Shown: in pieces, positions 6,135 to 12,072 of the stretch
How the letters are laid out: each line of letters opens with the position of its first letter
Position numbering within the stretch: position 1 is the stretch's first letter
Origin: an uncultured Hormoscilla sp.
Lineage (GTDB): Bacteria > Cyanobacteriota > Cyanobacteriia > Cyanobacteriales > Desertifilaceae
Assembly (NCBI GenBank): GCA_963921275.4
Contig: OZ001293.3
Coordinates: forward strand, 6,624,001-6,688,000
Length of the DNA stretch: 64,000 nucleotides
Direction of reading: 5' to 3'
Notes under the pieces: generated by a model
Told to the model about the DNA's origin: nothing
Seen by the model: only the letters and a program-made list of their open reading frames with translations
Databases searched by the model: none
Made by a program: the position numbers and the translations under genes

Positions 6135-6140
6135 ATTAAA

Positions 6141-6464
6141 CTAAGCCAGGGACCGACTCGTCTTCAAAACCGGACGTGACACTTTCGCGTCATCCGGCTC
6201 CTCGGTCTCGTCATCTCTGTCATAGACACGGCCTTTGCTGCCATCCCTGGCAGACTTATAGTCATGGCAATGGTCGTGCAGCAACTGTAGGTTGGTGTAC
6301 CAGTCCTTGCCCCCCCGAAAGGTAGGCATTATATGGTCCACTTCCCACCGGTCGCCATCCTTGAACATTAATCCACATATTTCGCATTTGCCCTTTTGTT
6401 TCCTGAGCAGGTTGATTACTCTAGTGCTCACGTCCGGGCTTTTCCGCATTCTCATGCTCCAGTA
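6141..6464 (-). pseudogene. ltrA: Intron C IEP, 3' segment (DNA-binding/HNH)
   Basis: YWSMRMRKSP...EVDHI...NLQLLHDHCH; joins in frame to GDLV at 10583 once intron D is removed. Confidence 0.85.
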
Positions 6465-6470
6465 ATTAAA

Positions 6471-6854
6471 CTAAGCCAGCGGGTCGCTCCGCCGACTCGT
6501 CTTCAAAACCGGACGTGACACTTTCGCGTCATCCGGCTCCTCAGTTTCGCCATCCTTGTCATGGATACGGCCTTTGCTGCCATCTCTGGCAGACTTAACA
6601 TCATGGCAATAGTCATGCAACAACTGTAGGTTAGAGTACCAGTCTTTTCCTCCTCGCGAGACTGGTAGAATATGGTCAACCTCCCACTTGTCACCGTCTT
6701 TGAACTTCAGTCCGCAGTGTAAACACTTACCATCCTGCCTTTTGAGCAGATTAATTACCCTTGTGCTCACATCCGGGCTTTTCGTTAGCCTTTTGCTCCA
6801 ATAGACTAGATTACCGTCGAACGGGCTTGCTGTTCCCTTTACCTTTATGTGTCT
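6471..6854 (-). pseudogene. ltrA: Intron D IEP, 3' segment (HNH), cut off by antisense intron F
   Basis: RHIKVKGTASPFDGNLVYWS...EVDHI...NLQLLHDYCH; in frame with ETEIV at 7726. Confidence 0.85.
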
Positions 6855-7725
6855 GTGCGATTCGTTCTAGCCTAACGTGGTCAAACACGGAACGCTAGCC
6901 CGGTTTCATTAGCCGGGAACTCTGACCGCATGGGGGTTAAATTCCCCTCCCCCCAGGTACGGGGGTGACACCGGTCCTCGGTGCTACGAAGCGACATCAT
7001 CGTGGTGCTAAGCGAGGACTCAAATGTAGGATAACTGGCAGCCTAAGCCGGTGACGCCGCTAGGAAAGATATCCAAGGTTAGAGCAGGCAAACATGTGCA
7101 AGCCTCGTTATAAGGAACCAGCGAAATAAGGCTATATGCGCTGGCCTAAAAAGGAAATGGTAGCTAGTATTAGTTTTAGACTCTGGCTAATATAGTACTC
7201 AAATAGCTCCCGGGGTATAGTGTGGACCTAAAGGTATCGCGAAATGTTGTTAGGGAACGAAGTAACCTCTCGTGTGCTGTCCATCAGGACAAGTTAGATG
7301 TTAAGCGCAAGCCACGGGGGGAGGGATGGCCCAAGAAGCGAATGCCCGGGGTAATTCCTGGGATAACATCTACAGTAATGTAGATGATGCTGGGTAGCCA
7401 GCGCTGACGTGGGTCGGTGATACTAGGAAGCTGCTGGAATGAGTAATCCTAAAAAGCCACGGAACTAATCCGAAACGCAAGTGGAGGATAAGGTATGGAT
7501 AACTGGTAAAACTGACTTGAAAATGGTGATACTAACGGTTATCAGAACAACCACTCGCTAAACCAGGAAAGGGAAGAAAAGACAGGCGGCAAGGGCTAAC
7601 GGAAGTAATTCCTATTAAGTCTACCTATGAAAAGGGCCTAGTACCCAGTAGCCGGATGCGGTGAAAATCGCAAGTCCGGTTCCTCAAGGGAGGGTCGGGA
7701 AGCGATTCCCGGCTCGACCCCATCC
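6855..7725 (+). mobile_element. ORF-less group II intron F, antisense inside the intron D ORF
   Basis: GTGCGATTCGTTCTAG start; DV tagccggatgcggtgaaaatcgcaagtccggtt; removal restores ETEIV|RHIKV. Confidence 0.9.
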
Positions 7726-9138: not shown

Positions 9139-9501
9139 TACTACTTACAACTTCACAATTGACGAGACCGTGAGGGCGTCAGCTTATCCTATCCATTACA
9201 GACAGGCGTTTGCTTCTCCACTCAATCTCCCCCTGTTGCGTCCTGCCTTCCGGAGAGCAGATGTTACGCCTGTGGTGGCTACTCCATCTATCGACCGGTG
9301 ATGGAGAGTACTGCAACCGGGTTATTTCGTTCCTACAGATGATTAGTCGTAACCTTAGATGGGTTCCTATACGCCGGGTTTATTGTCAGTGCTTGCCGGT
9401 CAGCTATTCATCTGCCGGTGACCATTATCCTTTCCCTTTTGGGACCAGTGTGCCAGCCTTATTTCACTGGTTTGGCGTAACGACGTTGCAAACCTTTGCT
9501 T

Positions 9502-10335
9502 AGTCGGGGTCGAGCTAGGGGTCACCCCCTAACCCTCCCATTCGGAACCGGACGTGCGACTTTCACCGCATCCGGCTACTGGCAAGTAGGGCATTGTCAC
9601 TACTAGGATTACTACGGATTGCTCCACTTGTCCCTCATCTCATGCGATTTCACTCCTTTCCTGGTTGGTAAGCGGCGCTGCCAGATAACCTTTAGTATTA
9701 CCATTTCCAAGTCTGTTTTACCAGTCATCCAACCTTCGAGAGGCCTCCGGCGTCTTAGAGATACTCTTACCCAAGATTTCCTACTTTAACCAACCCGCGT
9801 CAGCTGGATGAGGAACACCCCATCATATCCATAGGCGTTACCCTAGGCATTAGCTTCTCGGGCTATCTCTCCCCTCGCGGCTTGCGCTTTACATCTAACT
9901 TGTCCAATCTAGACAGCACACGAGAAGTTACTTCGTTCCCTAGTATCATTTCACGATGCTTTTAGGCCCCTGCTATACCCCGGGAGTTCTTAGAGTGCGA
10001 TACTGGCCAAGTGCAAGAACCAGCACAAACTACCATTTCCCTTTTGGGCCAGCGCTTTAAGCCTTATTTCGCTGGTTCTAGATAACGAGGCGTACACAGG
10101 TTCGCTTGTTCTAGCCATTAGCATCTTTCCTAGCGGCGTCACTAGCTTAGGCTGCTAGCTATCCTACATTCAAGTCCTTGCTCCGCACCACCGTGATGTG
10201 ACTCAGCAGCACTAAGGACCGGTGTTACTCCCACACTTGGAGAGAGGGAATCTAACCCCATGAATACCAGAGTTACCAGTTTGGACCTGGCCTAGCGTTC
10301 CGTAGTTGCCCACGTTAGACTAGAACGAATCGCAC
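9502..10335 (-). mobile_element. ORF-less group II intron E inserted in domain I of intron D
   Basis: GTGCGATTCGTTCTAG at 10335; ends cgaccccgact; removal makes D colinear with C; near-identical to 45012-45846. Confidence 0.92.
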
Positions 10336-10582
10336 TACGCTCATCATAGTTACTTGCTCGGCGGTAACCGATTTTTGGCTTTCAGTCATTGCGCCTTTCC
10401 TTCCCGCTTCACGGATTGATGCCATCGCTACCGTGGGGAGGGTGCTGTCACTCCTGCACCTGGAGGGGTGGGCTTTCACCACCATCATCTATAAGTTCTC
10501 GGGGCTAATAAAACCCCGGTAGTGGTCCCCTTTATTGATTTTTTGACATGTGTCAAGTCATTTTACACTAAACGAATCGCAC

Positions 10583-11407
10583 GACTAGGTCGCCATTATA
10601 CGGGCTAGCTGTCCCTTTCACCTTTACGTGTCTGATTATCTCAGTCTTTGAGTGCTGGGTAAGCTCTATCTTCTCCTTGTACTTGGTTTTGCCGATGAAG
10701 TTCCACCAGACATCCTTGGTAAGAGTCCAGTAATTTCTGGCAATCCATTTGATCGATTTGTTGGGGTGCCTTCCCTTTGCCCATTGCCACAGCAGTTCCC
10801 ATAGGTAGTTGTCCATATCATTGTAAGTTTTCTTACTTATCACAGTCTTAAAGTAGTTACACCATCCCCGTATTACCGGGTTTAGCTTGGCTATCAGAGC
10901 TGCTTGTGGCGCTGATTTATGGCTGCGTACTATCTGGGATAGCCGCTCTTTATGTTTCCTGATGGATTTACTACTAGGCTTAATCAGTGTCTTGAATCCT
11001 AGGGGGGTTCCGTGGGTTGATTTACCGCTTCTGTATTTCCCTACCACATATTGTCGGATATTGAATCCTAGGAAATCAAATCCTGGATTTTCTCCTTCCA
11101 GCGTGTGGGATATCCTGGTTTTCTCGGCTTTCAACTCTAGTCCTATTCCCTTTAGCCAGTCGGAAATCACTCCTTTTGCTCGCTCAATCATTGACCGGTC
11201 GTCGTGCATTACCACAAAATCATCGGCGTATCTGACTATGGTCATCTTCCTCTTCTCTTCCCTTGTGCGAACTTTCTGCTTGTTGCCTTCCTGTGCCGCT
11301 CTGTAAATTCGCTTTTGTAGCTTAAAGACTCGGCGCTCCAGCTCTTGCCAGGGCACCTCCTTCCATTCATACTCTTGTCTTTCGACTGAGTTCCGTGACA
11401 TGTTCAC
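10583..11407 (-). pseudogene. ltrA: Intron C IEP, 5' segment with in-frame internal deletion
   Basis: GNKQKVR|TREEKRKMTIVRYADD; lacks about 213 aa relative to the D protein. Confidence 0.85.
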
Positions 11408-12072
11408 TACTACTTACAACTTTACAATTGACGAAACTGTGAGGGCGTCAGCTTATCCCATCCATTACAGACGGGCGTTTGCTTCTCCACTCAATCTTTC
11501 CCGGTTGTGACCTGCCTTCCGGAGAGCAGATGTTACGCCTGTGGTGGCTACTCCATCTATCGACCGGTGATGGAGAGTACTGCAACCGGTTTACTTCGTT
11601 CCTACAGATGATTGGTCGTAACCTTAGATGGATTCCATACGCCGGGTTTGTTGTCAGTGCTTATTGGTCGGTCCAGAATCCGCCAATGACCTGTATCCTT
11701 TCCCTTTTGGGCCAGCGTGTTTAGCCTTATTCCGCTGGTTTCATGTAACGACGTTGCAAATCTTCGCATTATGCTCATCATAGCTACTTGCTTAGCGATG
11801 ACCAGTTTAGGCTGCCAGTCATTACGCCTTTCCTTCCCGCTTCACGGATTGATGCCATCGCTACCGTGGGGAGGGTGCTGTCACTCCTGCACCTGGAGGG
11901 GTGGGCTTTCACCACCATCATCTGTAAGTTGTCAGGGCTAATAAACCCTGCCAGCGGTCCCCCTTCTTGACTCGTGTCAAGTTAGTTTATGCTAAACGAA
12001 TCGCACTCTAGAGATATAATCTAGCGCGGTAATTTCTCTGGTCGAGAAGTTGAACTCAACTTCTCGACAATT

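Follow-up and report, generated by a model that had tools for sequence, protein, structure and literature searches.

A three-level nest of four group II introns recurs at unrelated sites in a Hormoscilla chromosome

How do group II introns that carry other introns inside them spread: as composites or piece by piece? This question is raised by a 64,000-nucleotide (nt) stretch of the chromosome of an uncultured Hormoscilla sp. (the window; G000:C1:6624001-6688000, where G000 is the host genome and C1 its chromosome), in which four group II introns lie one within another at positions 6135 to 12006. The outer intron, C, contains D, which in turn contains E and, in antisense, F. Nesting as such has been described before, and this locus is an extreme example of it; what makes the question testable is that the nest recurs at unrelated sites with exact boundaries. 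We lean, with somewhat less than even confidence, toward a history in which D entered C a single time and a joint RNA of the pair, C[D], then gave rise to copies elsewhere. The members of the nest and their parts are as follows (ORF, open reading frame; RT, reverse transcriptase; aa, amino acids):

6135..12006 (-): intron C, an ORF-type group II intron and the outermost member, 1754 nt when its cargo is excluded
10583..11407 (-): 5' part of the C ORF, the RT N-terminus fused to RT5-7 and X through a 639-nt in-frame deletion at about 11269
6135..6464 (-): 3' part of C, with the HNH domain, domain V and domain VI (apical hairpin deleted, bulged A kept)
6465..10582 (-): intron D, ORF-type, 2413 nt net, inserted in C domain IV with X on one side and the DNA-binding/HNH region on the other
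7684..9138 (-): D ORF in its present state, 484 aa with unbroken RT and X; F ends it before the DNA-binding/HNH part
6465..6854 (-): 3' part of D, with the HNH domain and domains V/VI
9502..10335 (-): intron E, 834 nt, ORF-less, sense, in D domain I; one of 72 near-identical copies
6855..7725 (+): intron F, 871 nt, ORF-less, antisense, interrupting the D ORF within domain IV; its family has 139 near-identical copies

All eight intron ends are exact and fall where an initial annotation of the sequence had placed them. The members begin with GTGCG, at 12006 (C), 10582 (D) and 10335 (E) on the (-) strand and at 6855 (F) on the (+) strand, and each ends in a domain V/VI match to the Rfam model RF00029 above its gathering score, the comparison with group II models that the annotation had suggested; the Rfam models of domains I-IV gave no match. 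C, D, E, and F carry the group II hallmarks, a 5' GUGYG and a 3' domain V/VI, and are inserted precisely, without target duplication; with one intron inside another and every end intact, the locus is a nested array of the twintron kind. Excision of E and F in silico yields a D of 2413 nt with an unbroken 598-aa RT-X-HNH ORF (joint ETEIV/RHIKV, the slash marking the site of F), and excision of D yields a C of 1754 nt with its frame restored across GDLV/YWS. Both joints had been predicted and are reproduced here. Across them, D and C align colinearly with natural relatives from the same genome that lack E, F, or D. The claim of four members, three levels, two lineages, and both orientations is likewise upheld, with identities of 81% between C and D, 72% between E and F, and 56-61% between the lineages.

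What do the two ORF introns still encode? Pfam domains at the nest comprise RVT_N, RVT_1, and GIIM plus two detached HNH domains. The full set of an intron-encoded protein (IEP; RT0-7, X, the DNA-binding domain, and HNH) is complete only after excision, in D as the 598-aa protein and in C only in a copy at 4.76 Mb; as they stand, D is without HNH and window C without RT0-4. Relative to the copy at C1:4762604, window C has lost 639 nt of the RT in frame (RT0-4), leaving 382 aa after excision, a deletion absent from the initial annotation. It also misses 9 nt of domain VI, in which the branch-point stem still folds. At the domain VI apex, small indels at TCC repeats distinguish all three C copies (window 6135-6175 and its sisters), at the place where reverse transcription would begin. 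The closest solved structure to the D protein is 6ME0 (E 2.4e-93), which we take to be the Thermosynechococcus elongatus maturase.

Is the nest confined to this locus? A second full nest spans C1:4762604-4756093 (6512 nt), a third, rearranged by deletion and inversion, occupies C1:3244012 and 3234921-3234241, and C occurs in truncated form at 3107268. These four copies of C have four unrelated flanks, and for three of them the empty alleles are exact to the base. The window copy lies between two features:

5850..6134 (+): thioesterase fragment of a broken polyketide synthase (PKS) module, ending at the nest
12073..12486 (+): lipocalin-like ORF, the other flank

Here C is antisense, directly behind the thioesterase stop codon, so no host protein at the window locus needs splicing; the orthologous site is empty in the congener G002. 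At 4.76 Mb, C lies in sense and interrupts codon 20 of a 110-aa gene. Three of four congeners have this gene whole, the host genome contains paralogues of it, and its protein matched no Pfam family. At 3.24 Mb, C sits in an insertion sequence (IS), of which four empty copies exist. D is present, at the same base, in all three C copies that keep its site, and none stands free at ≥93% identity. The RT-X part of C is intact in the 4.76 Mb nest, where D has a nonsense codon; in the window nest that of D is intact and C is deleted. Between the two full nests, C differs by 7 events in 1754 nt, D by 11 in 2413, E by 2 in 834, and F by 2 in 871. The congeners cannot show an empty C, because they hold no C or D above 84-85% identity over long matches.

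Could repeats have been stitched into a nest, or one nest duplicated, during assembly? Every member is a repeat, and among the matches listed in short-read contigs of eight runs, no read or contig spans the whole nest. We nevertheless consider misassembly highly improbable. Across the joints, frames and empty alleles are recovered base for base, private deletions and single-nucleotide differences set the nests apart, and the private C allele of each nest recurs in another study (runs X6 and X8). Among the same matches, contigs bridge three of the eight junctions with at least 31 letters on each side (6134/6135, 6464/6465, and 10582/10583), the first of them in a second study too; three further junctions are passed by 16-27 letters only, and both E junctions are crossed only by divergent contigs with 10-30 other letters. 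Contig depths of about two, two, and three copies (C ORF, D RT, and D tail) were left unused, as depths do not equal copy numbers.

How did each intron reach its site? The exon-binding sites (EBS) of the members and the intron-binding sites (IBS) that they pair with are as follows:

11672..11677 (-): EBS1 of C, TCTGGA, pairing with IBS1 TCTAGA at 12007-12012 by five Watson-Crick pairs and one G-U
10583..10595 (-): target of D in C, with IBS2 TGGCG (5/5 with EBS2) and IBS1 CTAGTC (5/6 with EBS1)
9404..9477 (-): EBS2 (CGCCA, 9477-9473) and EBS1 (GAATAG, 9409-9404) of D, parted from the D 5' end by E
10015-10010 (-): EBS1 of E, TGCACT, pairing by four plus one G-U
7178-7183 (+): EBS1 of F, AGACTC, pairing 5/6

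The EBS1/EBS2 complementarity to the 5' exon that marks group II introns is present, with EBS2 of F pairing by four plus one G-U and EBS2 pairing weak for C and E at this locus. Across an alignment of 14 ORF introns, EBS1 and EBS2 coincide with two hypervariable stretches of domain I. The base at +1 is A at 67 of 72 E sites and 96 of 139 F sites. The combination of IBS2 and IBS1 used by D occurs, among 66 homologous ORF sites, only in the two C sites; genome-wide, 417 sites match EBS2 of D fully and EBS1 with no more than one mismatch, and an intron fills only two of them, both in C, leaving 415 empty. Each member of the nest stands where the sequence pairs with its own EBS, and successive retrohoming likely built the nest.

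Do E and F travel only within the nest? The initial annotation held that F can move only as cargo in domain IV of D. F moves on its own: its 139 full-length copies have 115 distinct 5' flanks, and it is not confined to cargo because these free copies stand mostly at unrelated sites. Its antisense position means merely that the target lay on the other strand, and it is inert cargo in D-sense RNA only. The E family comprises 72 full-length copies with 58 distinct flanks. Because no ORF-bearing E/F-type intron was found in the host genome, we infer that both are mobilized in trans by C/D-family proteins, as has been shown for TeI3 (PMC2882425). F also occurs in head-to-tail tandems, of three copies at C1:5447656-5450268 and two at C1:824934-826675, and inside itself, at nt 768, in five places. 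A joint in run X8 that goes back 871 letters in F was considered as a circle and rejected, because such tandems exist in the genome. Substitutions in both families are chiefly C>T/G>A, which accounts for 35 of 42 in E and 64 of 85 in F, and tandem CC>TT/GG>AA sites number 5 in E and 6 in F, a pattern usually tied to UV damage. Among single changes there is no dipyrimidine excess.

Must the nest be spliced in order, as was first claimed? D and F lie 261 and 312 nt upstream of domain V, within domain IV, so C should splice without the removal of either, and the general requirement is not supported. Sequential splicing would be structurally expected at most for E in D. E lies in domain I of D, 247 nt from the D 5' end, in a variable hairpin 24 nt before EBS2; on the model of Trichodesmium erythraeum T.e.I7/I8, splicing of E before D is plausible. 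The hairpin is visible in two single-sequence folds and by eye only; it was not recovered when RNAalifold was applied to an alignment of 14 domain I segments, from which 9 of the initial 23 had been dropped for a missing anchor. F is not removable from D-sense RNA, where it is impossible as a sequentially spliced twintron member, and it leaves the D protein as RT-X without HNH. D, in turn, must splice for C to yield an HNH-bearing protein.

How, then, was the nest copied? If C[D] traveled as one RNA, C would splice with D left in domain IV and reverse-splice as a 4.8-6.5 kb lariat, its mobility supplied by its own HNH-less RT-X protein or by a sister protein in trans. E and F, moved in trans, may have filled the D sites before or after copying, and E probably slows the splicing of D until E is removed. 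Decay after insertion would account for the RT deletion in window C, the nonsense codon in D at 4.76 Mb, and the deletion and inversion at 3.24 Mb. A more specific form, in which the composite (C with D, perhaps with E and F, in domain IV) retrohomes in nature as a single RNA, the outer intron splicing first and E jamming D and so keeping D aboard, we entertain more tentatively still. In favor of joint copying, D is in every C copy that keeps its site and nowhere else, the comparable genomic sites outside C are empty, and D belongs to just four of 34 multi-copy intron families with a single flank, the other 30 having several. Mohr et al. took identical inner and diverged outer introns as the sign of independent insertion (PMC2882425), and this sign is absent here, where outer and inner members are about equally diverged between the two full nests. 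Both nest copies of E share a 1-nt deletion present in 9 of 72 copies, a coincidence expected in 1.4% of random pairs, or 5.2% for any minor allele, in a test picked after the data had been seen. Several points weigh against joint copying, beginning with that post hoc choice. The two nest copies of E differ at a common polymorphism (column 803), and genome-wide E and F behave as independent invaders, with same-site pairs sharing a haplotype in 4 of 28 cases for E (17% background) and 30 of 54 for F (45% background). The presence of E and F in the nests is uninformative on co-transport, because their sites are filled anyway, in 11 of 13 copies for E and 14 of 15 for F (the ORF site); F alleles are uninformative as well. 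Cargo above 1 kb is reported, in a secondary statement, to have abolished Ll.LtrB retrohoming in L. lactis (PMC8524655), and C here bears 2.4-4.1 kb. The comparison comprises three nests, seen as sequence only.

Two other histories compete with this one. C might have spread empty, D homing into each copy separately and E and F then filling every D. This needs no giant cargo, it is the mode that Mohr et al. favored for TeI3/TeI4 (PMC2882425), and E and F demonstrably insert independently into a sister family; the fit of the D guides to the C site (5/5 and 5/6), unique among the ORF sites compared, also speaks for it. Yet D is never ectopic, though sister families scatter to unrelated sites, five non-C sites with equal or better EBS1/EBS2 pairing stay empty, and D is not less diverged than C. 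Nor does an empty-C joint appear in the contigs of the eight runs, although contigs drop rare variants. We regard such piecemeal homing as possible but doubtful. Alternatively, C may have retrohomed empty and then acquired D, alone or together with E and F, through homologous recombination or gene conversion with a nest already present; cleavage of the unoccupied site by HNH may have initiated the exchange. Exchange at the DNA level would account both for D solely in C and for the equal divergence; in the C at 3.24 Mb, a cluster of 21 differences (nt 314-401) resembles conversion from another family, and E alleles do recombine, column 803 occurring in all four combinations with columns 77, 531, and 707. 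However, no direct sign of it, such as a co-conversion tract beside D, is seen and the nest-private alleles are scattered, and we think this course unlikely.

If copying of C[D] as one RNA is the true history, then natural introns, here putatively of the chloroplast-like (CL)/IIB lineage, can transport structured cargo of several kilobases, a point of relevance to the payload limits of targetrons, and the nest would be a case of the "composite retromobility" that Mohr et al. considered as a route without finding it (PMC2882425). The cargo would be several times above the reported Ll.LtrB limit, and the group II introns of the host genome are nearly five times as many as the highest published number (101, counted by different criteria; PMC8919778). 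Within the literature searched, which mostly excluded subscription papers, we found no published composite twintron retrohoming and no larger per-genome intron count. Nest depth itself is not new, because nests of up to five group II introns, from repeated homing, are described for Methanosarcina acetivorans (review, PMC4424553); the rarity that the initial annotation implied in going beyond two-intron twintrons falls with these and with the 28 nests of this genome.

How does the nest compare with known systems? The M. acetivorans arrays likewise arise by site-specific homing into other group II introns, combine ORF-less and RT members, and put no host gene at stake (PMC4424553); here, by contrast, one four-member nest stands at two to three sites that are unrelated and have exact boundaries, a host ORF is interrupted in sense by one of the copies, and an antisense member is included. 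TeI3/TeI4 of T. elongatus (PMC2882425) resemble it in that ORF-less introns home to a fixed site in ORF introns with driver IEPs acting in trans and in that families are defined by EBS changes. They differ in having two levels only, in identical inner and diverged outer introns where divergence here is even, and in ORF-less introns that share the lineage of the ORF introns, whereas E and F are 56-61% identical to C and D with no ORF-bearing sibling found. T.e.I7/I8 of Trichodesmium erythraeum, also cyanobacterial (PMC4649490), has an inner intron that starts close to the 5' end of the outer one (at 154 nt in the authors' coordinates, against 247 nt for E in D) and interrupts a short conserved gene, like the 4.76 Mb copy; its sequential splicing has been demonstrated, whereas E-before-D splicing is a plausible order here and the window copy of the nest is antisense and intergenic. 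In the plant mitochondrial "zombie" twintrons, the outer intron splices with an unspliced inner one in domain IV (PMC7049729), as would be the case for C[D] and is required for D[F], but their inner introns are degenerate where those here are intact and young.

How heavy is the intron load of the host genome? A domain V/VI hidden Markov model gave 490 matches on the genome, 489 at ≥25 bits and 441 at ≥40 bits, and none on 3 Mb of shuffled DNA; in an Rfam scan that scored 150 of 867 candidates, 148 of the 150 listed matches passed the cut-off. Of the 489 matches, 388 are of the ORF-less E/F type and 81 of the C/D type. RT0, PQG, and YADD are kept together in 41 of 58 long RT ORFs, and the HNH pattern used in this census undercounts. 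A stack parse paired at least 362 introns, covering 5.7% of the chromosome, and recognized nests in 28 of 318 top-level elements, five of them with three levels and one with five members; these nest counts are lower bounds because 207 of 931 ends stayed unpaired. Nested members are oriented in sense in 22 cases and in antisense in 22. The genome can serve as a natural model for the proliferation of introns through maturases that act in trans. An origin could not be placed by GC skew.

Other arrangements recur in this genome. The five-member nest (C1:6406537-6412386) and another four-member, three-level nest (C1:1147865-1152864) are both built on a sister of D, whose D'[E,F] form occupies five unlinked sites. 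A 943-nt ORF-less intron stands at one site in three of four copies of an ORF-intron family (C1:617167, 1139114, 3247169, and 1010434), with one other close copy only; with three of its four close copies inside one outer family, it repeats a pattern similar to that of D in C and speaks for joint copying. A 1.4-kb multi-copy IS-like repeat holds an ORF-less intron at one site in several copies (C1:529246, 4567748, 5247956, 1181511, and 3483535), and empty copies exist too. Congeners G002, G003, and G004 and a 3.8-Mb genome of another family (G028) have at least 86-88 Rfam matches each from 87 scored; congener G001 has two.

A promoter scan was at chance (9 sites, 12.2 expected). Elsewhere in the window, positions 93-1877 hold another ORF intron of full length, whose 592-aa ORF includes HNH, with an orphan domain V/VI right behind it at 1915-1993; an ORF-less intron scoring under the Rfam cut-off lies at 14077-14873 and another copy of E at 45406-45845. 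Beside the nest, positions 4453-6134 contain acyl carrier protein and thioesterase fragments of the PKS module, parted by a fragment of an IS630-like DDE transposase.

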